DNA from: a bacterium
Lineage (GTDB): Bacteria > Bacillota_I > Bacilli_A > RF39 > UBA660
Length of the DNA: 32,166 nucleotides
Direction of reading: 5' to 3'
Assembly (NCBI GenBank): GCA_029007415.1
Contig: JAQXHT010000051.1
Location: 1-32,166, forward strand
How positions within the stretch are numbered: position 1 is the first letter of the stretch; every line of letters starts with the position of its first letter. The position numbers and the translations under genes were made by a program. This document shows, one piece after another, positions 2,948-32,166 of this stretch. A model generated the notes under the pieces. That model did not search any database. It saw nothing but the letters and a program-made list of their open reading frames with translations, and was not told the DNA's origin.

Positions 2948-4102
2948 CTAATGAACATAAAATATTCCCATATAGATTAAAAAGGCTAAGTAAAGAAGAC
3001 AAGTAATCGCTCCATTTACTCTTTCAAAAGTGCTACTTTTATATTGAACACCAACAGCAGTTGTCATAAAGACACCACCGATTAAACCACCAATATGTGC
3101 AGCATTATCAATTCCTGGTACAAGAAAACCTAAGATAAGGTTTAAAGCTATTAAAGGAATTATCTGACTTTTAATGACTGTTCCTAAGTAAACACGGTAG
3201 TGATAACCAAAGTAAACCATTGAACCAAGAAGTCCAAAGATAGCTCCACTTGCTCCAACACTAACACTAGTGCTAGAAACAATAATGGATAGTAGTGAAG
3301 CAGTTACGGCACTAAATAAGTAAACAAGTAAATATTTCCATCTACCAAGAAAACTTTCTAATTGAACACCAATAATCCATAAAGCATACATATTGAAAGC
3401 TAAATGAGCAATATTAGCATGAACAAAGGTACCTGTTAATAAACGGTAATATTCCCCTTGTTTAATATAAGGACCAAATACTGCTAACTCTCTAAAGACA
3501 TCATCACTTTTCCCAAGTAATAAAGGAACAAAGAAAAGAGCAACATTTAAAAATACTAAGATAGCAGTAATAATTGCTTTCTTTGGCATAAATATTTTAT
3601 CCGTTTTCGTATGGTCTTGATAGTTATGTTCATTTATTTCATCAGTTATCTTAATAAATAAATCCGCACCTGTTTCTTTATTTTTGCTAATATTTTTATA
3701 TAAATCTGGATAAGCTTCTAATAATAATTTATTATTCTTAACATCTTTTTCATCAGTTATATGAACAGCTCTTCCTCTTTTTGGTAACTCTTTAGTAAGG
3801 TCTACACTACTTCCTAGATTTAAAAAGATACTTAAGACATTTAGTCTAAAAGAAAATGTTTTAGCTTTAATTTTCTTTATTATACGATTAGTTTTAAAAA
3901 CATCAAACTTATATTGTTCTTCATTATGGATATGACCGATTACTATTCTTATTATTTCACAATCTTCATCTAAATTTTCTAACCAAATCTCATCATCTAC
4001 ACCATTTAATACTATTGGTGTATAATTCTTTTCAGTTATAAAATAATGAAGAAGTTTCATAGCAATCATATTAGTGTCATCTATTTCAAGCACATTATTC
4101 AT
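2948..4102 (-). CDS. Rhomboid family intramembrane serine protease (GluP/YqgP-like)
   Basis: HLAFNM, GASGAIFG, AHIGG motifs; N-terminal soluble domain. Confidence 0.93.
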   Translation of the reverse strand: MNNVLEIDDTNMIAMKLLHYFITEKNYTPIVLNGVDDEIWLENLDEDCEIIRIVIGHIHNEEQYKFDVFKTNRIIKKIKAKTFSFRLNVLSIFLNLGSSVDLTKELPKRGRAVHITDEKDVKNNKLLLEAYPDLYKNISKNKETGADLFIKITDEINEHNYQDHTKTDKIFMPKKAIITAILVFLNVALFFVPLLLGKSDDVFRELAVFGPYIKQGEYYRLLTGTFVHANIAHLAFNMYALWIIGVQLESFLGRWKYLLVYLFSAVTASLLSIIVSSTSVSVGASGAIFGLLGSMVYFGYHYRVYLGTVIKSQIIPLIALNLILGFLVPGIDNAAHIGGLIGGVFMTTAVGVQYKSSTFERVNGAITCLLYLAFLIYMGIFYVH

Positions 4103-14371: not shown

Positions 14372-17320
14372 TTATATGATTTCTTCTTTATTTTCAATTG
14401 CTACTCTAACTAGTTTTGAAACTCCTGACTCTTGCATCGTAATTCCATATAGAGTATCAGCATATTCCATCGTTTTCTTTTTATGGGTGATAATTAAAAA
14501 CTGGGTTTTATTTTTATAATGTTCTAGATATTTACCAAACTGAGTAACATTTGCTTCATCTAAAGCAGCTTCTACCTCATCAAAAATACAGAATGGTACT
14601 TTTCTAATATTTAATATTGCAAATAACAAACTAATAGCAGTTAGAGTTTTTTCACCACCTGATAATAGTTGAATAGTTGATAGTTTTTTTCCTGGTGGTG
14701 AAGCGATTATCTCAATACCCGTTGTTAATAAATCATCTGGATTAGTTAGTTTTAAGTCAGCACTTCCACCATGAAACATCTTAGAGAAAACTATTTTAAA
14801 TTCTTCTTTAATTTCTTCAAAAGTCTTTAAGAATTCATCTTTCATTACTTGGTCTAGTTCTCCCATTATCTCTAATAAAGTTCCTTCTGCTTTTTCCAAG
14901 TCTTCTTTTTGATGTAGTAAAAATTCATATCTTGTCTTTACTCTATCATACTCTTCTATCGCTTGTAAGTTAACCATACCTAAATCTTTAATAATCATTT
15001 TATATTGATTAACTAGCTTTCTTGATTCTTCTACTTCTTCTGTTAATTGATAATCATTTCTAGCTTTTTCATAAGTCATTGTATATTCTTCTGATAAAGT
15101 TTGTAAATAACTATTAAGTTTAATATCAATTCTTGATAATTCTATTTCCAAGTTTTTCATTGTATCTTGTTTTTTCTTTAGAATTCTACCTTCATAAGTA
15201 TCTTCATCTTCAAAGCTAGCAATGTTACTTTTAAGAGTTTTTAATTTATTATCAAGAAAACTCTTCTTTTGTTCAAGTTTTTCCTTATAGGTACTCTTCT
15301 TATAGAAAGCTTCAATTAGTTCTTTTTCTTTTTCATCAAAACTATCAGTGGAAGCTTCTAATCTTTTAATTGATTCATTTTTTCTAGTAAGACTTTGTTT
15401 TAATTCACTATATCTTTTTTCCTTTTCAGTAATAGTATCTTTAATGCTTTCTAGCTCTTTAGCTAGATTATAGTAAATATCTTCAATTGTAGTAATTTTC
15501 TCTTCTGTTTCTTTAATATCTAATAATACTTTACTCCTTGATTTAGTTAGTGCTTGATAAGTTCTCCGTAAAGACTCTATTTCTTGTCTTATCATTACAG
15601 AACTTCTTCCTTTATAGAAAGTTCCACCCGTCATAGAACCACCTGAGTTGATAACATCACCATCAAGAGTTACTATTTTATAGCGATTAGCAGTGTATCT
15701 TGCTATTTGAATAGCACTATCCATATCTTTAGCTAAGACAACAAGACCAAATTGGTTATAAATTACATCTTTATATTTTTCTTCGGTTTTAATTTTATCT
15801 GCTAAGATACCACAATAACCATTAACTTTTTCTAACTGACTTTTTACTTCTACCGGAATATATCGTGGTTTAATGACTGTCAAAGGGAAGAAAGTTGCTC
15901 TTCCTTTCTTTTTATTTTTTAAGTTTGCAATTGCTTCTTTAGCACAAGTTTCATCTTTTACTAAGACAAAGTTTTTACTAGCTGCTATGGCTATATCTAA
16001 AGCTTTAGCATAAATATCATCAGTTGTAACAACATTACCAATCGTATCATAGATTCCTTTTAGCGATTCTTCTTTTAAAATATAGCGAATAACTTCTGGT
16101 AGATTAGAACCCTTCTCTTCTTCACTTACTAAAAAGTTAATCTTATTCTTATAGCTCAACTGGTCTTGATCTATTTTACTATATTCACTTAGGTAGTTTT
16201 TCTTAGCTATTTTAGTTGAATCTAATTCTTTCTTTTTAGTTGTTACTTCTTCTTCTTTTTCTTTTACTTCTTCTTTTAAGTTTGTAAGTTCTTCTTCTAA
16301 AAGTGCTAGTTCTTTTTTATCTTTCGATTGTTCTGTTAAAAGAAGACGTAACTCTTCTTCGCTTTCTCCTTTTTCTTTTTTACTACGTTCTAGTTTAAAT
16401 AGTTCTAAACTTCCTTCTTGTCTTACAACTTCCTCAGCAGTTTTTATTAATTCATTCTGAACAAAAGTTATTTCTTTTTGTAGTTCATCTTCTTCTTGTT
16501 TAAACTTTAAAAGCTTACTATCTCTGACATTTTCTTCTTTTAATGCTAAAGATATTTCTTCATCTAACCTATGTTTTTCTTCTTTTTTTAGTTTTTCTTC
16601 TTCTGTTAAATGATATATGTCATAAGCAAGTAATGCTATTTCTAAAGATTCTAACTTTTTCTTATATTCTAAATATTTTTTAGCTTCTTCGCTTTGTCTT
16701 TTCAAAGGAGTTACTTGTAGTTCTAACTCCGTTATAATATCTTGCACTCTATCTAAGGCTTCATGAGTACGGTCTAATTTTCTTAAAGCTTCTTCTTTTC
16801 GTTTCTTGTATTTTAAGATACTAGCAGCTTCTTCAAAGATAAGACGTCGTTCATCTTTACTTTCACTTAGTATCTTTTGTACTTCACCTTGACCAATGAT
16901 ATTGAAGGACTCTCTTCCAATACCACTATCTAAAAATAGATTTAAAATATCTTTCAAACGACATTTTTGATTATTCAAAAAGTATTCATTTTCACTACTT
17001 CTAAATACACGTCTTTTAATTGATACTTCTGTATAAGGTATTGGTAAATAATGATCATTATTATCAAAAACAAGTTCCACCGAAGCGACATTTTTCATTT
17101 TTCTTGAAGCACTTCCGACAAAGATGACGTCACTCATAGCGCCGTCACCTCTTAAAGTTTTAACTGATTGTTCTCCTAAAACCCATCGAACCGCATCAAC
17201 GATATTACTTTTTCCACTACCATTCGGTCCAACAATACAGGTCGTTTCATCATTTAATACTATATCTATTTTATCAGCAAATGATTTAAAACCATTCACT
17301 ACTATTTCTTTTAAATACAT
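14372..17320 (-). CDS. smc: Chromosome segregation ATPase SMC
   Basis: GPNGSGKSN, hinge GRATFFPL and GGSMTGG, LSGGEK, DEVEAALD. Confidence 0.96.
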   Translation of the reverse strand: MYLKEIVVNGFKSFADKIDIVLNDETTCIVGPNGSGKSNIVDAVRWVLGEQSVKTLRGDGAMSDVIFVGSASRKMKNVASVELVFDNNDHYLPIPYTEVSIKRRVFRSSENEYFLNNQKCRLKDILNLFLDSGIGRESFNIIGQGEVQKILSESKDERRLIFEEAASILKYKKRKEEALRKLDRTHEALDRVQDIITELELQVTPLKRQSEEAKKYLEYKKKLESLEIALLAYDIYHLTEEEKLKKEEKHRLDEEISLALKEENVRDSKLLKFKQEEDELQKEITFVQNELIKTAEEVVRQEGSLELFKLERSKKEKGESEEELRLLLTEQSKDKKELALLEEELTNLKEEVKEKEEEVTTKKKELDSTKIAKKNYLSEYSKIDQDQLSYKNKINFLVSEEEKGSNLPEVIRYILKEESLKGIYDTIGNVVTTDDIYAKALDIAIAASKNFVLVKDETCAKEAIANLKNKKKGRATFFPLTVIKPRYIPVEVKSQLEKVNGYCGILADKIKTEEKYKDVIYNQFGLVVLAKDMDSAIQIARYTANRYKIVTLDGDVINSGGSMTGGTFYKGRSSVMIRQEIESLRRTYQALTKSRSKVLLDIKETEEKITTIEDIYYNLAKELESIKDTITEKEKRYSELKQSLTRKNESIKRLEASTDSFDEKEKELIEAFYKKSTYKEKLEQKKSFLDNKLKTLKSNIASFEDEDTYEGRILKKKQDTMKNLEIELSRIDIKLNSYLQTLSEEYTMTYEKARNDYQLTEEVEESRKLVNQYKMIIKDLGMVNLQAIEEYDRVKTRYEFLLHQKEDLEKAEGTLLEIMGELDQVMKDEFLKTFEEIKEEFKIVFSKMFHGGSADLKLTNPDDLLTTGIEIIASPPGKKLSTIQLLSGGEKTLTAISLLFAILNIRKVPFCIFDEVEAALDEANVTQFGKYLEHYKNKTQFLIITHKKKTMEYADTLYGITMQESGVSKLVRVAIENKEEII

Positions 17321-17460: not shown

Positions 17461-17531
17461 TTTAAAGTTACTTAGATTAATTTCTCTAATCATATTACTA
17501 TCCACTTTATTAGTACTATCAATAATAGATA
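17461..17531 (+). pseudogene. Remnant of small hydrophobic peptide gene (copy A)
   Basis: LKLLRLISLIILLSTLLVLSI; lacks promoter, RBS and start; 1-nt deletion before the homologous stop. Confidence 0.7.
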
Positions 17532-17532
17532 A

Positions 17533-17642
17533 TAAAAAGGCACTCTTCATCAAGATAGAGTGTCACCCAAAATCTTTTTGAAGGAGACATTCACTACCAA
17601 ATAAATGTTCCTATTTTTTTATGTTATGCAAGTTCTCTTGCT
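17533..17642 (-). ncRNA. Putative antisense antitoxin sRNA A
   Basis: Minus-strand TTGTTA(17677-72)-17bp-TAATAT(17654-49) promoter; terminator hairpin 17539-17564 with U-tract; ends approximate. Confidence 0.55.
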
Positions 17643-17728
17643 ACATACATATTAGCACAACACTTATCATTTAACAAGGCATTTTGCTACGAGAAAAGTT
17701 CAAATATTAAAAAGTGTTATCTATTCAA

Positions 17729-17757
17729 TTGGTTAATTATCTTATCTATGTTATTAT
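17729..17757 (+). promoter_or_regulatory. Sigma-A-like promoter for peptide gene B
   Basis: TTGGTT-17bp-TATTAT with extended TG; conserved in copy C. Confidence 0.6.
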
Positions 17758-17825
17758 CTTTAACAGGAACATTTATAGATGAGTGTCATCCTTCTTATAT
17801 AAAACATATAAGGAGGTGGTGATTT

Positions 17826-17918
17826 ATGAAAACTAAGACTTTTATTCTAAAATTTCTTAGATTAATTTCATTAATCTTACTACTATCCACCTTATTGGTA
17901 CTAGCAGTAAAAAACTAA
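17826..17918 (+). CDS. 30-aa hydrophobic peptide, putative type I toxin (copy B)
   Basis: MKTKTFILKFLRLISLILLLSTLLVLAVKN*; aaggaggt SD paired in a hairpin with upstream ccttcttatat. Confidence 0.8.
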   Translation: MKTKTFILKFLRLISLILLLSTLLVLAVKN

Positions 17919-17919
17919 A

Positions 17920-18025
17920 ACAAAGACACTCTTCATTAAAGTAGAGTGTCAACAACAAACTTTGAAGGAGACATTCACTACCAAATAAATGTTCCTCTTT
18001 TTTATTTTATGCAAATTTATTTGCT
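17920..18025 (-). ncRNA. Putative antisense antitoxin sRNA B
   Basis: TTGTTA(18060-55)-17bp-TAATAT(18037-32); terminator hairpin 17925-17950; ends approximate. Confidence 0.55.
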
Positions 18026-18111
18026 ACATACATATTAGCACAATACTAACTTATTAACAAGTAATTTTACTACGGAAAAAGTTTAAATATTTAAAAGTAT
18101 TATCTATTTAA

Positions 18112-18140
18112 TTGGTTAATTACTATATCTATGTTATTAT
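18112..18140 (+). promoter_or_regulatory. Sigma-A-like promoter for peptide gene C
   Basis: TTGGTT-17bp-TATTAT with extended TG. Confidence 0.6.
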
Positions 18141-18208
18141 CAATAACAGGAACATTTATAGCTGAGTGTCAACCTCCTGTCACAAAAAATAGCAAGGAGG
18201 TAGATAGA

Positions 18209-18301
18209 ATGAAAACTAAAACTTTTATTTTAAAGTTACTTAGACTAATTTCACTAATCTTGTTACTATCTACTTTATTAGTATTATCAATAAATAGATA
18301 A
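18209..18301 (+). CDS. 30-aa hydrophobic peptide, putative type I toxin (copy C)
   Basis: MKTKTFILKLLRLISLILLLSTLLVLSINR*; aggaggt SD complementary to upstream acctcct; differences from copy B are mostly synonymous. Confidence 0.8.
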   Translation: MKTKTFILKLLRLISLILLLSTLLVLSINR

Positions 18302-18407
18302 TAAAAAGGCACTCTTCATTAAAGTAGAGTGTCAACAAAACATTATGAGGTGACATTCACTTCCAAATAAATGTTCCTCTTTTTTATTTTATGCAAATTC
18401 ATTTGCT
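18302..18407 (-). ncRNA. Putative antisense antitoxin sRNA C
   Basis: TTGTTA(18442-37)-17bp-TAATAT(18419-14); terminator hairpin 18308-18333 with U-tract; ends approximate. Confidence 0.55.
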
Positions 18408-18563
18408 ACATACATATTAGCATAATACTAACTTATTAACAAGTAATTTTACTACGAGAAATACTATAACTTTTTTCTTTATCATTTTAAAATATATTAC
18501 GAAAGAAAGTAATATCACATTTTTCCATTACGTTACTATTTCTAACATATTTTGTATATAATT

Positions 18564-18607: not shown

Positions 18608-19876
18608 CTAGTTATTTTTAAATTCGAAATAGAAGTCTAGTATTCTGACCATATCACCATCTTGAGCGCCCATTTCTTCTAACTTTTCATCGATTCCCAT
18701 TCTTCTTAATTTCTTAGCAAAGCGTAACATTCCTTCTTCAGTACTAAATTTAGTCATTTTGAATAGTTTTTCTACTTCTTCACCTTTTATAACGAAACAG
18801 TCATCTTCTTTTTCAATGGTGAATGGTTCTTCCTCTTTAAATTTATATAAAACATAATCTTCATAATCATCATTTTCATATAAATCGACTTCTCTATTTT
18901 TAGATACTATCTCTTCTAAGTAATCAACCACTTCTTGAAGACCAGTTTTTTCAAAAGCTGATATTGCAAAGATTTTCTTATCTTTAATATTTTCTTTTAA
19001 GATATTTAGTTTTTCTTCACTTCCTGCTACATCCATTTTGTTTGCTACAACAACCATGTCTTTTGCCATTAACTTTTCGTTAAAAGCTTTTAATTCATTA
19101 TTGATTAATTTATAGTCATTAAGTGGATCTTCGCGAGACATATCTAAAACGTGAAGTAAAACTTTAGTTCTTTCGATATGTTTTAAAAATCTATCACCTA
19201 AGCCATCACCTTTACTAGCTCCTTCAATTAATCCTGGTAAATCTGCCATAACAAATGTATCACCATTAGTTGCTCTTACCACTCCCAAGTGGGGATGAAG
19301 GGTTGTAAATGGATAATCAGCTATTTTGGGTTTTGCTTTTGAAACACTAGAAATTATAGTACTCTTTCCAACACTAGGAAAACCAACTAAACCAACATCA
19401 GCTAAAAGCTTTAATTCTACTTTTATTTCACGTTCTTCACCTGGTTCACCATTTTCAGAAAAATTAGGAGCAGTATTAGTTTGCGTTTTAAAAGCAGTGT
19501 TACCACGTCCTCCACGTCCTCCATGTGCTACAACAAAAGATGAATCTTTTCCTTTTAAGTCTGCTAAAACAAGACCGGTATCCATATCGGTTATTACCGT
19601 ACCTTGTGGTACTTTAACAACAATTGGTTCCCTACTCTTCCCATGTTGATTTTTACCTTTACCGTTTTCTCCTTTTTCTCCTTTAATTAACTTTTGATAG
19701 CGTAAATCAAGTAAAGTGTGAAGTCCTTCATCTACTTTAAAGATGATATCAGCTCCGTGGCCTCCATTTCCACCATAAGGTCCACCATAAGCGATATATT
19801 TTTCTCTTCGAAAAGCAGTACAACCATCTCCACCATTTCCTGCTTTTACTTTTAATACTACTTCATCTACAAACAT
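18608..19876 (-). CDS. obgE: GTPase ObgE
   Basis: Gly-rich Obg domain, GFPSVGKST, DYPFTT, DLPG, NKMD. Confidence 0.97.
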   Translation of the reverse strand: MFVDEVVLKVKAGNGGDGCTAFRREKYIAYGGPYGGNGGHGADIIFKVDEGLHTLLDLRYQKLIKGEKGENGKGKNQHGKSREPIVVKVPQGTVITDMDTGLVLADLKGKDSSFVVAHGGRGGRGNTAFKTQTNTAPNFSENGEPGEEREIKVELKLLADVGLVGFPSVGKSTIISSVSKAKPKIADYPFTTLHPHLGVVRATNGDTFVMADLPGLIEGASKGDGLGDRFLKHIERTKVLLHVLDMSREDPLNDYKLINNELKAFNEKLMAKDMVVVANKMDVAGSEEKLNILKENIKDKKIFAISAFEKTGLQEVVDYLEEIVSKNREVDLYENDDYEDYVLYKFKEEEPFTIEKEDDCFVIKGEEVEKLFKMTKFSTEEGMLRFAKKLRRMGIDEKLEEMGAQDGDMVRILDFYFEFKNN

Positions 19877-25629: not shown

Positions 25630-26169
25630 TTATTTTGTTTTATTAAGAATTAGAATAAACTTATCGCCATATTTTCTTTCTTTATATATGGTATAATATT
25701 CACCATAAACAAATTTGTCTTTACTACTACTTTCTAAAATAACTAAACCATCAGTATTTAACAAATCATTCTTTTCTATTAGAATAAGAGCTTCTTTAAT
25801 ATAATCTGTTTTATACGGTGGATCAATAAAGATTAAATCATATTTATTAGTTGTTTCCTTCAAGAATTTACGGAAATCAATTAAATAGACAGTGTCTAAC
25901 TTTTCCCCTAAATTAGTTAAATTATTCTTGATAGTTTTAATAGCTATTTTGTTTTCATCAATGAAGGTACAACTCTTTCCTCCTTCACTTAATGCTTCTA
26001 AACCTAGATTACCACTACCTGCAAAAAGGTCAAGACAATTACTATCTTTAATATAATTTTGAATCATGGCAAATAAAGATTCTTTCACCCTATCCATAGT
26101 AGGTCTTGTTCCTTCTATATCATAACCAATAATATTTCTTCCTTTATATTTACCACTAATTATTTTCAT
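25630..26169 (-). CDS. rsmD: 16S rRNA (guanine(966)-N2)-methyltransferase
   Basis: TRPTMDRVKESLF, LDLFAGSG, DPPY. Confidence 0.95.
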   Translation of the reverse strand: MKIISGKYKGRNIIGYDIEGTRPTMDRVKESLFAMIQNYIKDSNCLDLFAGSGNLGLEALSEGGKSCTFIDENKIAIKTIKNNLTNLGEKLDTVYLIDFRKFLKETTNKYDLIFIDPPYKTDYIKEALILIEKNDLLNTDGLVILESSSKDKFVYGEYYTIYKERKYGDKFILILNKTK

Positions 26170-26422
26170 CTTTAATCTCTCCTAAGTATTTATTACAAGA
26201 TAATATCAAAAAGTTAAGTCGATTTTCTAGCATTTTATATTTTTTGTATTTCTCATCATTATATATTTCTTTTCTAATCGTTTCATTATAAGTATTATGA
26301 TACTCATCTATCTTAGCAATTAGTTCTTTATCTTCATAAATACTAGCAAGACTTTTCTTAATTTCAAACTTTATCTCCGAATTATCAATCATATCAACTA
26401 GTTCATAATAAGTTCCAATCAT
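26156..26422 (-). CDS. Small helical protein, possibly YlbF/YmcA-like
   Basis: Overlaps rsmD start; Y..YK.LEN.LN pattern; family uncertain. Confidence 0.5.
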   Translation of the reverse strand: MIGTYYELVDMIDNSEIKFEIKKSLASIYEDKELIAKIDEYHNTYNETIRKEIYNDEKYKKYKMLENRLNFLILSCNKYLGEIKDENN

Positions 26423-26472
26423 CTGTTAACCACTTCCGTCATTATTATAACAAATACTTAATCAAGAGAAAA

Positions 26473-27600
26473 CTATCTTTTCATTTTTAAATCATTACGA
26501 TAGCAGAAACTACCGCTATCAGCACTTTTTAGAAAGCCATTATAACTTGCTAAGGTTTGTTCTAACTTTTCTGGTTCATGTTTTCTAACGTATTTTACTC
26601 GTTTTTTTATTTTTCGTTTAGTCTTGCCATTTATTAGCATTAATAGTCTTTTATTCTTTAAAACAAAGCGATACCCTAGAAAACAAAAGCCATGATGAAT
26701 TTCTACTATCTGTGTCTTTCTATTAAGTTTTAGTTTTACTTCATCTAATTTCTTTTCTATTTCTTTTAAACAGTATTTAAGATATTCTCTATCTTCATGA
26801 AATAAAATGAAATCATCCATATATCTAACGTAGCATTTTATTCTTAGCTTTTCTTTAATAAAATGATCTAAGTCATTTAAATAATAAACTGCTAATATTT
26901 GACTAGTCATATTACCTATTGGTAGTCCTTTTCCTTTTTGATAAAGTGGTATTGATTCAAGAGACTTAATATGACTTTCGCAATCTCTAATACCTAGTTT
27001 TTTAACTCTTTCAATTTCACTTTCTACTGATTTTTTAATTTCTTCATTAACATAATTATAATTAGTACTAATAATTATTTCTTTTACCATATTAAATATA
27101 CGTTCATCTTTAATAAGCTTAGTTAGCTTATCAAGAAGTATTTCTTGGTCTATTGAATAAAAGTATTTTGATATATCACATTTAAGTACATATATTTTAT
27201 CATGATTTTCCTTCATTTTATTAATGTACTTTTTCACATAATATATTCCTTTACTTGAACCCATAAGTGGTCTTGTAGCTACATTCATTGGTAGTAAAAG
27301 TGGATCAATTAAAGGAAAAAGAAAATAAGTACTAACTAAGTGATTAACTATTTTATCTGGCATTGTTTCACTCATAATCAAACGATATTTCGGCTCTTTA
27401 ATTATAAAGATATGATATTTTTGATGATGATAAGCTTCCTCTTTTAAGGTATTGTAAATTGACATAATATTGCAAGAAAAAAATAGTTCAAATATGAAAA
27501 TCTTATCCTTGTGTTTAGTATTTTTGCGAACGGTATTATAAACATTAGTAAGATTTTCTATCGTAACTACTTCTTCATAACTAAGTGCTTTGCTTTTCAC
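26473..27600 (-). CDS. DGR reverse transcriptase
   Basis: KCDISKYF, GLPIGNMTSQ (DGR-type GxxxSQ), YVRYMDDF, FLGY; 375 aa with no maturase or endonuclease domain. Confidence 0.95.
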   Translation of the reverse strand: MKSKALSYEEVVTIENLTNVYNTVRKNTKHKDKIFIFELFFSCNIMSIYNTLKEEAYHHQKYHIFIIKEPKYRLIMSETMPDKIVNHLVSTYFLFPLIDPLLLPMNVATRPLMGSSKGIYYVKKYINKMKENHDKIYVLKCDISKYFYSIDQEILLDKLTKLIKDERIFNMVKEIIISTNYNYVNEEIKKSVESEIERVKKLGIRDCESHIKSLESIPLYQKGKGLPIGNMTSQILAVYYLNDLDHFIKEKLRIKCYVRYMDDFILFHEDREYLKYCLKEIEKKLDEVKLKLNRKTQIVEIHHGFCFLGYRFVLKNKRLLMLINGKTKRKIKKRVKYVRKHEPEKLEQTLASYNGFLKSADSGSFCYRNDLKMKR

Positions 27601-27937
27601 TCCTAATCACCCCATAAGAAATTTTTCTGATTTCAATTAAAAAATTACTAACTGACTCGTACTTCTTATGGCTAATAATTTTTTTCTTATAACTAACATG
27701 CATATAATAATCGAGCATAGAAATTTGAATAACTAGTGCTTTTAGATATTTAAGTTTAATTCTATTAGTATCCTCGATTCGGTAAGAAAAAATATTTTCA
27801 ATTATCAAATACATAGTTTTTTCGATATTTTGTTTTAATATCACTTCATTTTTAGGATAGTTAATTAATTGTTTGTTAATATAATCAATCGTTTTTTCAC
27901 TATTAGATAAAAGTCTAAAACTATCATTGGAGTCCAT
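27581..27937 (-). CDS. avd: DGR accessory variability determinant (four-helix bundle)
   Basis: 118-aa basic helical protein with YPKNE..L and KIISHKKYE..EI.K..G pattern; overlaps RT start by 20 nt. Confidence 0.85.
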   Translation of the reverse strand: MDSNDSFRLLSNSEKTIDYINKQLINYPKNEVILKQNIEKTMYLIIENIFSYRIEDTNRIKLKYLKALVIQISMLDYYMHVSYKKKIISHKKYESVSNFLIEIRKISYGVIRSEKQST

Positions 27938-28331
27938 CGATAAACTCCTTAATTTTATTATAATTTTCAGAACTATTAGAAATTAACATTTCAATTCTTT
28001 TCATTAATAATTCATGGGAACATTTGCTGTAATAACTTTTCTGAGCAATAGCTGATATATCTTTATATAGATTATCATCACTCATATAACTAGTTATTTC
28101 TTCATTTTCTACGATGTAAAAAGAAATATTCTTATCACGTAAATTTTTTGTTACTTTAGTAAGTGCTGCTACTGGGAATCCTAATTTTTCATTATTAATT
28201 TGGTATGAAAAAAGATAATTCATAGTTATAGCATCAAATCCAAAAGTAACATAAAAACTGCCTACTTTTAAGAGAACTATTTCTTCTTGATGTTGTTTTT
28301 TCAACTCTTCATACTTTTCTTTTACTTTCAT
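27924..28331 (-). CDS. Stand-alone MutS domain I-like DGR accessory protein
   Basis: Y..LK......LLKVGSFYVTFGFDA and GFP motifs; start at ATG 28331 after aggag, giving 135 aa. Confidence 0.8.
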   Translation of the reverse strand: MKVKEKYEELKKQHQEEIVLLKVGSFYVTFGFDAITMNYLFSYQINNEKLGFPVAALTKVTKNLRDKNISFYIVENEEITSYMSDDNLYKDISAIAQKSYYSKCSHELLMKRIEMLISNSSENYNKIKEFIDGLQ

Positions 28332-28348
28332 TTTACTCCTATAATAGT

Positions 28349-28734
28349 TATGCCAAAGATTAATCTTGTTTCCAATCTTTAGATTATGAGTTATATCATT
28401 ACTTCCTCTAGTTACCAACCTTAATCAATAACATACGGTTAGATTAGCAATAATTATACTAATTCGTAGTAGGAATCTGGACGGGCCCCGAAGGAATTCG
28501 TGACGTTGTTCCAATGATTCAGACTGCCTGAAGGATTCACGTTCCAAACGTTCGCATTAGAGTTGTTAGACTCAAAGTTAGACGGAGACAGCGAAGTTCT
28601 AAGCTCTGAATGCAACACAAACCTGAAAGGTCCGTTAGTAGATTAACCTCACTTACTATATTTTTTCAATGTATCAATATTTTCTCAAATAATAATATTA
28701 GCTAAGAAAAGTATACATTATTTTTTCTGGCATA
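28349..28734 (-). ncRNA. DGR template cassette 1 (TR1 28477-28592)
   Basis: TR reads LSPSNFESNNSNANVWNVNPSGSLNHWNNVTNSFGARP; bounded by tatgcca/tggcata. Confidence 0.88.
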
Positions 28735-29363
28735 TAGTTTTTAAAGTAGATTTTAGTTAAATTGCAAGAATTACTAATTTACCTATATATGATGTTAGTT
28801 TTATTTTATAGATAAACGGATACTTACATGTCATATGACAGATATTTTTAAGTAAAACTATGCATGACACAAATTATTTTTCACTACTAGCATATTAGTA
28901 AATATGCCTTACTAGCTCCTATGGTATTTAATTATCTTTAGTAGTTAAATTTAACTGTAATAAACAACTATATATATTATTATCAGTCTTTTTCATAATC
29001 CGTACGAGGTGTCATTACCCCTGTTTCTTTCCGTTAGTATCTATTAGTGTCAAATAATAGATATATTACTCCGCTATAAGTTTTGTATTTTGAGTTATTT
29101 TCTTAATTTATATTAGTATTAAAATAATACAAAAATAAATTTCTTTCTATATCTTTTAATAATAGTAAAAAGTATTTTAAAGATTATAGATAAAGTCATT
29201 ACTCAAAACAAAATTACCATATTTTACCATAGATTTCCCCTCATCATCCATAATAATGGTAACATATCGTTTGAGAATTTTCAATATTTATTCTCAAGTA
29301 TGAATATATTTATACAAGAAAAAAAGCAAAAACTTTTTTAATAATTTTTACTTTTGTTATTGT

Positions 29364-29742
29364 TATGCCAAAGATTAATCTTGTTTCCAATCTTACAGAT
29401 TATGAGTTGGCTCATTACTTCCTCTAGTTATTAACCTTAATCAATAACATACGGTTAGATTAGCAATGATTATACTAATTTGTAGTAGGAATCTGGACGG
29501 GCCCCGAAGGAATTCGTGACGTTGTTTCCGTTATTCAAGCTGCCTGAAGGATTCACGTTCCAAACATTTGCATTAGAGTTGTTTGAATTGAAGTTAGACG
29601 GAGACAGCAAACTTCTAAAAACTAATACTAGAAGGAAAAAACCGTTATTAGACTAACCTTATTTATATTCTTTTAATGTACCAATATTTTCTTGAATAGT
29701 TAACACCAGTCAAAAAAAGTATACATCATATTTCTTGGCATA
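29364..29742 (-). ncRNA. DGR template cassette 2 (TR2 29493-29608)
   Basis: TR reads LSPSNFNSNNSNANVWNVNPSGSLNNGNNVTNSFGARP; bounded by tatgccaa/ttggcata. Confidence 0.88.
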
Positions 29743-29774
29743 GTATTTAAAAACTACTTTGTCTTAATTATGGT

Positions 29775-30156
29775 TATGCCAAAGATTAATCTTGTTTCCA
29801 ATCTTACAGATTATGAGTTATCTCATTACTTCCTCTAGTTACCAACCTTAATCAATAACATACGGTTTAGATTAGCAATAATTGTACTAACTTGTAGTAG
29901 GAATCTGGACGGGCCCCGAAGGAATTCGTGACGTTATTCCAGTCAATCAGACCGCCCGAAGGAAGGACGTTCCAAACGTTCGCATTAGAGTTGTTTGAAT
30001 TGAAGTTAGACGGAGACAGCAAACTTCTAAAAACTAATGCTAGAAAAAGTCTAAAACCGTTATTAGATTAACCTTTATCATTTTCTTTTAATGTACCAAT
30101 ATTTTTTTAAATAATTAGTTTAGCTAAAAAACGTATACATTATTTTTTTTGGCATA
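29775..30156 (-). ncRNA. DGR template cassette 3 (TR3 29905-30020), cognate template of the visible VR
   Basis: TR reads LSPSNFNSNNSNANVWNVLPSGGLIDWNNVTNSFGARP; 15 mismatches to VR, all at TR adenines. Confidence 0.95.
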
Positions 30157-30232
30157 ACATAGGAAAAATAATACTCCTTTATTTTTTTAAATGCAAGCGA
30201 TTTTATATTTTAAAAATAAACAATTATAGCTT

Positions 30233-30591
30233 GTGTCAAAGATTAATCTTGTTTCCAATCTTACAGATTATGAGTTAGCTCATTACTTCCTCTAGTTAGT
30301 AACCTTAATCAATAACATACGGTTTAGATTAGCAATGATTATACTAATTTGTAGTAGGAATCTGGACGGGCCCCGAAGGAATTTGTTACATCACGATTAT
30401 TCAGGCTGCCTGAAGAAAACACGCTCCAAATATCTATTATAGAATAATTAGAATTGAAATAAAACGGAGACAGCAATATCTTTAATGCTTAGAACCTCGC
30501 ATTAGATTAACCTTGTTATTATTGCAATGTACAAATATTTTCTTAGCAATAATTATTAACTGAGAAAAGTATACATTATTTTTTCTGACAC
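30233..30591 (-). ncRNA. DGR template cassette 4 (TR4 30362-30474)
   Basis: TR reads LSPFYFNSNYSIIDIWSVFSSGSLNNRDVTNSFGARP (one codon shorter); bounded by gtgtca/tgacac. Confidence 0.82.
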
Positions 30592-30627
30592 TTTTGATAG
30601 AAAAATTATATTTTTATTTAAAATTAA

Positions 30628-31011
30628 TATGCCAAAGATTAATCTTGTTTCCAATCTTTTAGATTATGAGTTAGCTCATTACTTCCTCTAGTTATTAACC
30701 TTAATCAATAACATACGGTTTAGATTAGCAATGATTATACTAATTTGTAGTAGGAATCTGGACGGGCCCCGAAGGAATTCTCGACACTACCCCAATGATT
30801 CAACATGCCTGAAGGATTCACGTTCCAAACATTCGCACTAGAGTTATTTGAATTGAAGTTAGACGGAGACAGCGAACTTCTAAAACTAATGCTAGAATGG
30901 ATCAAAACCGCTATTAGATTAACCTTATATTATTTTTTATTATCAATGCACCAATATTCTTACAAATAGTATTATTAGTTATAAGATGTATACATTATTT
31001 TTTCTGGCATA
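30628..31011 (-). ncRNA. DGR template cassette 5 (TR5 30758-30873)
   Basis: TR reads LSPSNFNSNNSSANVWNVNPSGMLNHWGSVENSFGARP; bounded by tatgcca/tggcata. Confidence 0.88.
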
Positions 31012-31036
31012 AAATAATTTTGATATTTATATAGTA

Positions 31037-31399
31037 GTGCCAAAGATTAATCTTGTTTCCAATCTTACAGATTATGAGTTAGCTCATTACTTCCTCTAGT
31101 TACCAACCTTAATCAATAACATACGGTTAGATTAGCAATGATTATACTAATTTGTAGTAGGAATCTGGACGGGCCCCGAAGGAATTATTGACGTTATTCC
31201 AGTCAAGACTGCCTGAAGGCTGCACCGTCCAAACGTTAGCGTGAGAATTACCTGAGTTGAATTTAGACGGAGACAGTGAAAAAGAAATCCAAGTGAGAGA
31301 ACCGTTTTTAGATTAACCTTTTCTTTATGTTCAATGTACCAATATTTTTTCTGAATAATTAATTTAATCAAAGAAAGTATACATTATTTTTTCTGGCAC
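31037..31399 (-). ncRNA. DGR template cassette 6 (TR6 31165-31277)
   Basis: TR reads LSPSKFNSGNSHANVWTVQPSGSLDWNNVNNSFGARP (one codon shorter); bounded by gtgcca/tggcac. Confidence 0.86.
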
Positions 31400-31441
31400 G
31401 TTTTAAGTAATATAAATTTTTTCAAATATATTTTATAGATG

Positions 31442-31810
31442 TATGCCAAAGATTAATCTTGTTTCCAATCTTTAGATTATGAGTTAACTCATTACTTCCT
31501 CTAGTTATCAACCTTAATCAATAACATACGGTTAGATTAGCAATGATTATACTAATTTGTAGTAGGAATCTGGACGGGCCCCGAAGGAATTTGCAACATA
31601 CGTCCAATCATTCAGACTGCCCGAAGGATTCACGTTCCAAACGTTCGACTGTGAGTTGTTTGAATCGAAGTTAGACGGAGACAGCGAAAGGACAAACAAA
31701 CAGAAAGAGTCCGTTAGTAGATTAACCTTATTTATATTTATTTAATGCATCAATATTCTTACAAATAATTATATTAGTTGCAAGATGTATACATTACCTT
31801 TTCTGGCATA
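31442..31810 (-). ncRNA. DGR template cassette 7 (TR7 31570-31685)
   Basis: TR reads LSPSNFDSNNSQSNVWNVNPSGSLNDWTYVANSFGARP; bounded by tatgcca/tggcata. Confidence 0.88.
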
Positions 31811-31816
31811 AATTAA

Positions 31817-31842
31817 AGGCAAAATGATGAGTCATTTTGCCT
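31817..31842 (-). terminator. Perfect hairpin after target gene (terminator and/or DGR homing hairpin)
   Basis: aggcaaaatga-tgag-tcattttgcct: 11-bp stem, 4-nt loop, 5 nt past the stop codon. Confidence 0.7.
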
Positions 31843-31847
31843 AGAAA

Positions 31848-32165
31848 CTAACTTATTGAAACAACATATGGATTTAAAGCAGTTCCATCTCCCTTGGTTA
31901 TCAGTGTATCAGCCTTTAGGTTGATAACTGGACGGGCCCCGAAGGAAGACGAGACGTAAATCCAGTCAAGCAGACCGCCCGAAGGAAGGACGTACCAAAC
32001 GTACGCAAGAGAGTAGTATGAAGAGAAGTAAGACGGAGACAGCGTCCAGAAATATTGGCCATTATATAGATAATAATTACTATTTGCTGTATTATATACT
32101 CCTCCAGCCATTGCTACTTCATCGGCTGTGATAAGTGAAACTGGATAGTCTAGTTTGGCACTTGC
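31848..32165 (-). CDS. DGR target protein, C-terminal part (probable C-type lectin-fold variable domain); 5' end outside window
   Basis: Frame open to window edge: ASAKLDYPVSLITADEVAMAGG...FWTLSP[VR]GARPVINL; WxxS...GxRP framing is typical of CLec DGR targets. Confidence 0.9.
   Translation of the reverse strand, partial: ASAKLDYPVSLITADEVAMAGGVYNTANSNYYLYNGQYFWTLSPSYFSSYYSLAYVWYVLPSGGLLDWIYVSSSFGARPVINLKADTLITKGDGTALNPYVVSIS
31928..32043 (-). repeat. DGR variable repeat (VR)
   Basis: 116 bp colinear with TR3; encodes LSPSYFSSYYSLAYVWYVLPSGGLLDWIYVSSSFGARP. Confidence 0.95.
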
Positions 32166-32166
32166 A

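Follow-up and report, generated by a model that had tools for sequence, protein, structure and literature searches.

A tandem array of seven template-repeat units in a diversity-generating retroelement of a small-genome gut bacterium

Background

The DNA analysed here, called the window, is the whole of contig C51 (JAQXHT010000051.1, 32,166 nt) of assembly GCA_029007415.1, from a bacterium of the UBA660 lineage (Bacillota_I; Bacilli_A; RF39). The source genome is 1.26 Mb in 125 contigs, with 28% GC and a completeness of 77%. The window carries a diversity-generating retroelement (DGR) with seven repeat units of about 400 nt at positions 28330–31811, each made up of a leader, a template repeat (TR) and a scaffold. 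These units probably represent a tandem array of alternative template genes, old duplicates shaped by selection in this genome, with rare overwriting by mutagenised cDNA in relatives. The usual picture of a DGR is one of a single invariant template and many variable copies. The departures described here are arrays, several templates for the same variable copies and overwritten templates. Arrays of 2 to 11 template genes occur across this clade of small-genome gut Bacilli.

Structure of the template units

In each unit the leader and the scaffold both span about 140 nt, the leader having a conserved 5' block, and the TR between them has 113 or 116 nt (Table 1). A sequence-only reading of the window had described the TRs as stop-free in the frame of the variable repeat (VR), as having length variants of exactly -3 nt and as adjoining a nearly invariant scaffold. 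These descriptions are borne out. None of the seven TRs has a stop codon in the VR frame, and the other two forward frames have 0 to 6 stops. TR4 and TR6 measure 113 nt, compared to 116 nt for the remaining five. On average, two units of the array differ by 3.9% in the scaffold and by 19% over the whole TR. The codon awareness of the TRs extends over the whole clade, where 132 of 137 unique TRs have a length that is a multiple of 3. Unit 1 occupies a conserved slot and is 95% and 98% identical to the single TR adjacent to the reverse transcriptase (RT) gene in two sister species of the same genus.

Secondary structure modeling of the scaffold by RNAalifold, with 26 diverse units, predicts 33 base pairs, of which 18 show compensatory changes, and pairs the TR 3' end with an invariant GGAAACAAG motif. 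By this model the scaffold is a structured RNA. Rfam gave no match at E values up to 1 in positions 26000–32166, and none at gathering scores in positions 1–26000. Some TRs of other loci (L064 units 1 and 2, L025 unit 1) have TGA in place of a conserved TGG (Trp) codon; adenine mutagenesis of this codon would yield Trp, Cys or a stop.

An assembly artefact, in the array or in the rewritten slots described below, might be suspected from the fragmentation into 125 contigs, the breaks of target genes at contig ends and the indel errors of one sister-strain contig (L108). However, Logan contigs from 4 runs of 4 studies bridge the unit junctions with 0–3 differences, which supports the unit order. 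Three sister-strain contigs share this order, arrays of 2–11 units are present on many independent contigs, and two joins, each within 20 nt or less of homology, would be required for a chimera. An artefact is therefore very improbable. Over positions 30751–31067, the TR5 region, the Logan contigs show 0 differences in 4 of 4 runs. A Logan contig of run X1 has a TR7 with an in-frame 3-nt deletion at 31600–31602 and six other changed letters, which suggests that new frame-keeping length variants segregate in populations.

The DGR and its target gene

The locus is a working DGR of the MutS-like/Avd/RT type. Its parts all lie on the minus strand in the order target gene with VR, hairpin, seven TR units, MutS-like (MSL) gene, bAvd-like gene and RT gene. 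The RT gene lies beside the repeats and matches RVT_1 above the Pfam cut-off. Its translation contains IGNMTSQ and YMDD, which are presumably hallmarks of DGR RTs, and an orthologue in a sister species (G067) is 90% identical and adjoins a TR1-like TR. Of the two accessory genes typical of DGRs, the MSL gene matches MutS_I above the cut-off and the Avd-like gene matches bAvd below its cut-off. The VR lies within the coding sequence of the target gene, 80 nt before the stop codon, and is thus C-terminal as is usual for DGRs. VR diversification is ongoing: contigs of 4 runs that cover the VR have 17–24 letters per 142–172 nt other than those of the window, although these run-to-run differences may include contributions from paralogous VRs. 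Contigs of the same runs that cover TR5, TR6 and TR1 have 0 differences inside the TRs.

The target has no Pfam family; hmmscan at E values up to 1 gave no match to DUF6273 (PF19789), and a PDB sequence search returned nothing usable. The ESM Atlas clusters nearest to the target carry DUF6273 on 25–28% of their members, which is a lead only.

Table 1. Positions of the DGR components in the window
Feature	Position	Strand	Remarks
RT of the DGR, 375 aa	26473..27600	-	Pfam RVT_1, E=1.5e-18, 67.7 bits (cut-off 29.6)
Avd-like accessory protein, 118 aa	27581..27937	-	Pfam bAvd, E=1.9e-7, 32 bits, under curated cut-off 40
MSL accessory protein, 164 aa	27924..28418	-	Pfam MutS_I, E=5.2e-8, 33.5 bits (cut-off 20.6)
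TR unit 1, next to MSL/avd/RT	28330..28735	-	TR1 28477-28592, 116 nt, 11 AAY codons (Y, pyrimidine); scaffold 28330-28476
AT-rich non-coding spacer between units 2 and 1, ~610 nt	28736..29345	-	no open reading frame >=40 aa
TR unit 2	29346..29745	-	TR2 29493-29608, 116 nt, 13 AAY
TR unit 3	29757..30157	-	TR3 29905-30020, 116 nt, 10 AAY; template of VR C51 (window) and VR C88
TR unit 4, AT-drifted	30214..30593	-	TR4 30362-30474, 113 nt, 5 AAY
TR unit 5	30610..31012	-	TR5 30758-30873, 116 nt, 9 AAY
TR unit 6	31018..31401	-	TR6 31165-31277, 113 nt, 7 AAY
TR unit 7	31423..31811	-	TR7 31570-31685, 116 nt, 8 AAY
Terminator-like hairpin after target gene, upstream of array	31817..31842	-	11-pair stem, then T-rich tail
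Target gene 3' end (last 105 codons), cut by contig end	31848..32165	-	reading frame open at 5' end
VR, 116 nt	31928-32043	-	15 differences from TR3, all at TR adenines

Pairing of templates with variable repeats

Paralogues of the target gene are found at the ends of contigs C88, C25, C77, C118 and C8. The genome has five targets with intact VR ends (C51, C88, C25, C77 and C118) and one that is degenerate (C8). The differences at TR adenines that are expected of a DGR are present for C51, C88 and C77. All mismatches to TR3 are at TR3 adenines in the VRs of C51 (15/15) and C88 (13/13), and the VR of C77 fits TR1, with 12 adenine and 2 non-A mismatches. The VR of C25 has 13 adenine and 5 non-A mismatches to TR3, and by eye no TR of any locus fits better. 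Judged by these mismatch patterns, TR3 and TR1 have demonstrably rewritten VRs in the source genome. The paralogue at C8:816–927 (L232) is full-length with a degenerate VR and 3' end, and no TR comes closer to it than 22 non-A mismatches. This paralogue has GTC CTT and ATT in common with TR3 and looks like a target that has fallen out of diversification.

The first 12 nt and the GC-rich last 20 nt are identical across all seven TRs and the five intact VR ends; only C8 differs. With these common ends, cDNA from any TR could rewrite any VR. TR and VR sequences part only downstream of the common 3' end, where the TR is followed by ATTCCTACTA... and the VR by TTATCAACC.... The initiation of mutagenic homing sequence (IMH) of a VR is expected to differ from that of the TR (IMH*), but here the 3' ends are identical over 20 nt. 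Excerpts of PMC5758913 describe identical IMH and IMH* in some DGRs, so this identity does not exclude membership in the group. It does imply that downstream sequence must serve to tell TR and VR apart. The coding sequence directly after the VR, at 31893–31927, contains an inverted repeat of 7 bp (GTTATCA ... TGATAAC) whose arms are 18 nt apart, and one of 5 bp (TACTA ... TAGTA) directly follows each TR. These inverted repeats could matter for target recognition.

Arrays and shared templates in related genomes

In a search of 61 genomes, the full unit was found to occur once in each of eight other genomes of the genus. Arrays of 2 to 10 units are present at many loci, and in one of them there is an eleventh unit whose scaffold is a variant. 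Genome G061, of another species, has 11 TR units and only two VRs. By eye, its array-adjacent VR (VRa) is the same as unit U2 with differences at U2 adenines only. The sister species G067 has eight TRs, one beside the RT gene and seven at a second target locus. Ten of its 11 parsed VRs assign to five of the eight TRs with 0–5 non-A mismatches, with up to three VRs per TR, and a VR that adjoins one TR can be templated by another. Two 113-nt TRs in this species give 113-nt VRs, which shows that the -3-nt variants are functional cassettes. One 113-nt TR (L217:2451), which lacks a codon near the same place as TR6, templates two 113-nt VRs. The seven-unit array of G067 lies behind the second target on contig C18 (L217) and the RT gene is on contig C22 (L216); this array may be served in trans.

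The sequence-only reading had named beforehand an alternative that would overturn its own view, namely that every TR has an old paralogous target of its own, which it serves and with which it has co-diverged. The count of five intact and one degenerate targets is indeed similar to that of the seven TRs. However, TR3 templates at least two VRs (C51 and C88) and TR1 templates one, and the seven TRs and the five intact VR ends have identical termini. The 11 units for two VRs in G061, and the five TRs that serve ten VRs in G067, also contradict such pairing. Co-divergence with private targets is hardly credible.

That reading had also suggested a comparison of strains for polar gain or loss. Sister strain L108 lacks the leader and TR of unit 7. 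In L108 (reverse complement, near position 3595) the unit 7 scaffold follows the end of the target gene without a gap. This junction implies gain or loss of units on the side of the array that faces the VR.

Origin of the differences among the seven TRs

The ancestor of the array was inferred with eight single-TR outgroups, and minimal substitution events were counted. The codon changes listed in the sequence-only reading all exist relative to this ancestor: AAT>CTT, AGT>GGT and TCA>TCG in TR3, AAT>GAT in TR7 and AAT>AGT in TR5. There are 66 minimal events, 24 at an ancestral A and 42 at non-A, and 12 of the 66 create an A. Non-A changes had been said to fall often at third positions, which is correct for 29 of the 42. 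By site class there are 23 events at 27 sites for A at codon positions 1/2, 1 event at 2 sites for A at position 3, 29 events at 36 sites for non-A at position 3, and 13 events at 49 sites for non-A at positions 1/2. The Y of the AAY codons varies most, with 15 events at 12 sites, compared to 14 events at 24 sites for other non-A third positions.

The proposed adenine bias of these differences therefore stands against base composition and not against the neutral-like classes. Variable sites are 19 of 29 for A and 30 of 85 for non-A (Fisher p=0.008), but a comparison of A sites (18/27) with non-A third positions (20/36) shows no excess (p=0.44). Averaged over pairs of units, divergence reaches 27% at A sites, 28% at third positions and 29% in the leader, but 8.6% at non-A positions 1/2 and 3.9% in the scaffold. 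The A-site spectrum of the seven TRs is dominated by transitions (A>G 13, A>T 7, A>C 4). In the four VRs of the source genome it is A>T 26, A>C 17 and A>G 10, and the A>G share differs from that of the TRs (p=0.003). TR3-, TR4-, TR5- and TR6-like types recur in other species, which implies that the differences among the window TRs are old. The lack of an A excess over third positions and leader, the variation of the Y positions and the unlike spectrum indicate that ordinary divergence under codon-level selection explains the pattern in the window. From these comparisons the seven TRs look like old duplicates that have drifted in a neutral-like way where the VR product tolerates change and have stayed constant elsewhere.

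The sequence-only reading had favored a different origin, in which TRs take up VR sequence or adenine-mutagenised cDNA, so that the array becomes a heritable archive of past variants that were successful and selected. The excess of variable A sites over composition agrees with this. Likewise, when TR2, the most A-rich, is compared with TR3, TR5 and TR1, mismatches at a TR2 A, at an A of the other TR and at neither number 8/0/6, 8/1/7 and 5/0/7. A patch of TR3, chosen post hoc, has 4/4 adenines changed. Moreover, A-depleted TRs exist in arrays (G061 U4, U8 and U5, window TR4 and the TR4-slot allele of L108), and relatives show the clean rewriting events described below. On the other side, there is no A excess over third positions or leader, 42 of the 66 events are non-A and 12 create an A, and the A-site spectrum is unlike the RT output seen in VRs. 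Most TRs keep 7–13 AAY codons, with A-poor slots at 0 (G061 U4), 1 (U8), 3 (U5) and 5 (window TR4). This argues that rewriting is not dominant: it is rare, or A-depleted slots are mostly purged. No VR was traced to an A-depleted TR among the VRs of the source genome, G061 and G067. As the main source of the inter-TR differences, mutagenised cDNA or VR sequence is unlikely, and an adaptive role of the array as an archive is hypothetical. The claim that TRs receive such sequence thus does not hold for the seven TRs of the window, where cDNA entry is a possible contributor, and finds its support in relatives (L108, G061 and L130).

Rewritten TR slots in relatives

An 18-nt pattern over the TR end and scaffold start was used to collect units, and gave 47 loci from species genomes plus 78 from metagenome contigs. 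L108 is a sister strain in which the array flanks are about 1% different from the window. Its TR4 slot contains a derivative of TR1 that has 11 A>N changes, a single C>T and an indel of 1 nt but keeps the TR1-specific non-A markers. Leader and scaffold of this slot are still of the TR4 type, with 4 mismatches in the aligned portion of the leader and 1 in the scaffold, and another sister strain (L109) carries the TR4 allele of the window with one difference. In the alignment the L108 allele has lost adenines at 9 of the 11 AAY codons of TR1; its AAY count of zero is unreliable, as indels in the contig shift the frame.

In G061, unit U4 matches U10 over 112 nt apart from 15 changes, every one of them A>N (hypergeometric 4.9e-11). 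The flanks of U4 are diverged from those of U10 and resemble those of U3. The third case is L130, a single-TR relative in which the only differences from L021 over about 460 nt are 5 A>N. These five changes cluster at the 3' end of the variable part of the TR, the polarity expected of cDNA integration. As a control, ordered pairs among 133 unique TRs were screened for those with five or more mismatches at one parental base and no more than one elsewhere. Three pairs pass for A and none passes for C, G or T; the L108 case, which needs a gapped alignment, comes on top of them. A hand tally pooled over the three clean events (A>T 14, A>C 7, A>G 10) gives a spectrum like that of the VRs (p=0.34).

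In the textbook DGR the TR is an invariant master copy, but three TR slots in these relatives hold alleles rewritten with adenine mutagenesis. Judged from the alignments, such overwriting is a real mechanism in this lineage, and a rare one. Orthologous TR2 and TR3 differ at 3 of 116 positions between sister strains.

The adenine signature could also be inherited from a donor VR by homologous VR-to-TR gene conversion, DNA to DNA. The outcome would be indistinguishable from cDNA homing at the sequence level. In an engineered system (bioRxiv 10.1101/2025.03.24.644984), some TR/VR exchange took place with a catalytically inactive RT via homologous recombination. A slot swap with few or no A changes also exists, L126 unit 2 having slot-4 flanks and a type-1 TR. 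However, the replaced tracts end inside terminal homologies of 12 nt and 20–31 nt. Homologies of this size are short for RecA-type recombination. The L130 patch is 3'-polar, which fits cDNA integration anchored at the TR/VR 3' end, and a 3' polarity of DGR cDNA integration is described in excerpts of PMC5758913. No VR that matches the new alleles was found in G061 or G069, and in particular none of the VRs of G069 carries the L130 patch. Gene conversion is thus the less favored route, with a modest chance of being correct.

Several other possibilities were considered and set aside. The RT-proximal TR as a constant donor was dropped: the G061 donor U10 is the last unit, and RT there is upstream of the target. 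The G061 array is followed by ruvA and ruvB. The L108 donor TR1 is also the last unit, which with G061 makes two cases only. No TR could be assigned to the L108 VR, the best candidate being TR3 with 7 A and 4 other mismatches plus 7 gaps in an error-prone contig. The changes common to the two TR4 alleles were given no weight: 3 of 4 shared positions are identical, which by a rough hand estimate is not above chance. Incongruence between TR-content and flank trees is suggested but was not used because support is too weak.

Proposed mechanism

The preferred explanation, a tandem array of alternative template genes, would operate as follows. A single template of a MutS-like/Avd/RT DGR would have expanded into seven self-contained template-RNA genes. 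Each unit is probably transcribed independently as its own RNA, which is suggested by the terminator that precedes the array. The RT, with Avd and MSL, would copy the TR of any unit from a probable priming site in the scaffold. The adenine-mutagenised cDNA from any TR could then home to any of five or more paralogous VRs via the common ends. The TRs would in this way act as alternative cassettes with different fixed residues, different AAY placement and two loop lengths. Selection on the VR products would keep the scaffold-coding positions and the frame, leaving variable codons and synonymous sites free. Rarely, mutagenised cDNA would enter a TR slot in place of a VR and replace exactly the VR-homologous tract. 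Discrimination between TR and VR is evidently leaky, with cDNA rather than VR DNA as the probable incoming strand.

A number of observations weigh against this explanation. A promoter scan of the region gave 20 sites versus 20.8 expected in shuffles, i.e., no signal above chance. No cognate VR was found for TR2, TR4, TR5, TR6 or TR7 in the 77%-complete assembly, which leaves the use of those TRs in the source genome unproven. The rate at A sites equals the neutral-like rate and is compatible with some old A>N changes having come from cDNA, and the TR3 patch, an 18-nt segment, combines its changed adenines with one G>C. Each clean rewriting case is a single record; the L108 contig has homopolymer indel errors, and the coverage of L130 is 1.35 by contig name. 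The TR-content and flank trees are poorly resolved, with 13 of 22 and 13 of 23 inner branches open.

A more far-reaching idea is that the array is a writable, heritable template library, in which cDNA entering TR slots freezes residues, reshapes the hypermutable positions and leaves a memory of earlier binding-site variants. This is doubtful at present, though it deserves mention. If true, the element would evolve its own mutational programme, with cassettes swapped into the same VRs.

The array adds a second layer of variation to the DGR, consisting of cassette choice and loop-length change, and the rewritten slots show that the donor/recipient rule is leaky in nature. Because TRs and VRs have common 3' ends and differ only downstream, their discrimination is directly testable here. 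The findings are relevant to DGR-detection software that assumes one TR per RT. They also bear on the engineering of DGRs for mutagenesis, in which self-mutagenesis of the TR is a nuisance in practice.

Comparison with known systems

MSL is listed as a DGR accessory gene of architecture D in excerpts of PMC5758913, and is also described in bioRxiv 10.1101/2024.11.15.621889. The locus resembles the DGR of Bordetella phage BPP-1, which has one TR, and the architecture D DGRs of Legionella and Bacteroides in having an RT with Avd-like and MSL proteins, a C-terminal VR, adenine-only TR-VR mismatches, an AAY-rich TR and a GC-rich 3' end. It differs from them in having seven complete tandem template-RNA genes in place of one, no IMH/IMH* difference inside the repeat, and TRs that vary in the lineage. 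DGRs with several TRs are known. In the portions consulted of Yan et al. 2019 (PMC6642488), 216 of 271 multi-VR DGRs have a single TR and the rest several, and a Stenotrophomonas DGR with two TRs and six VRs is shown. Those portions do not describe tandem full units, several TRs per VR or TR rewriting. More generally, no description of tandem TR arrays, several TRs per VR or natural TR rewriting was found in a literature search that did not cover the supplementary tables of surveys.

In early work on BPP-1, replacement of IMH* by IMH reportedly makes the TR a target. In the engineered DGRec system, mutagenised cDNA recombines into TR-bearing DNA, and "TR self-mutagenesis" is the label of a figure legend in the same work (bioRxiv 10.1101/2025.03.24.644984). 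Those cases involve recombineering, plasmids or a swapped IMH, whereas the events described here are natural, chromosomal, heritable and between TR slots. Systems of antigenic variation such as pilS/pilE and vls copy unexpressed cassettes into expression sites. The present array is likewise a cassette set, but copying is via RNA and an error-prone RT with adenine mutagenesis, and each cassette is probably a transcribed RNA gene with its own priming scaffold.

Other features of the window

The hairpin that precedes the array (Table 1) is the sole terminator-like site of the region, with 1.6 expected in shuffles. Unit spacing across the spacer between units 2 and 1 is 1016 nt, compared to about 400 nt elsewhere; sister strains keep this spacer, with a spacing of 990 nt. 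Away from the DGR, positions 17463–18461 contain three tandem copies of about 383 nt. They are located between an SMC-like gene (14372–17320) and an Obg-like GTPase gene (18608–19876), both named from a reading of the translations by eye. Each copy has a hairpin-like inverted repeat, with open reading frames of only 30–56 aa and no Rfam match.

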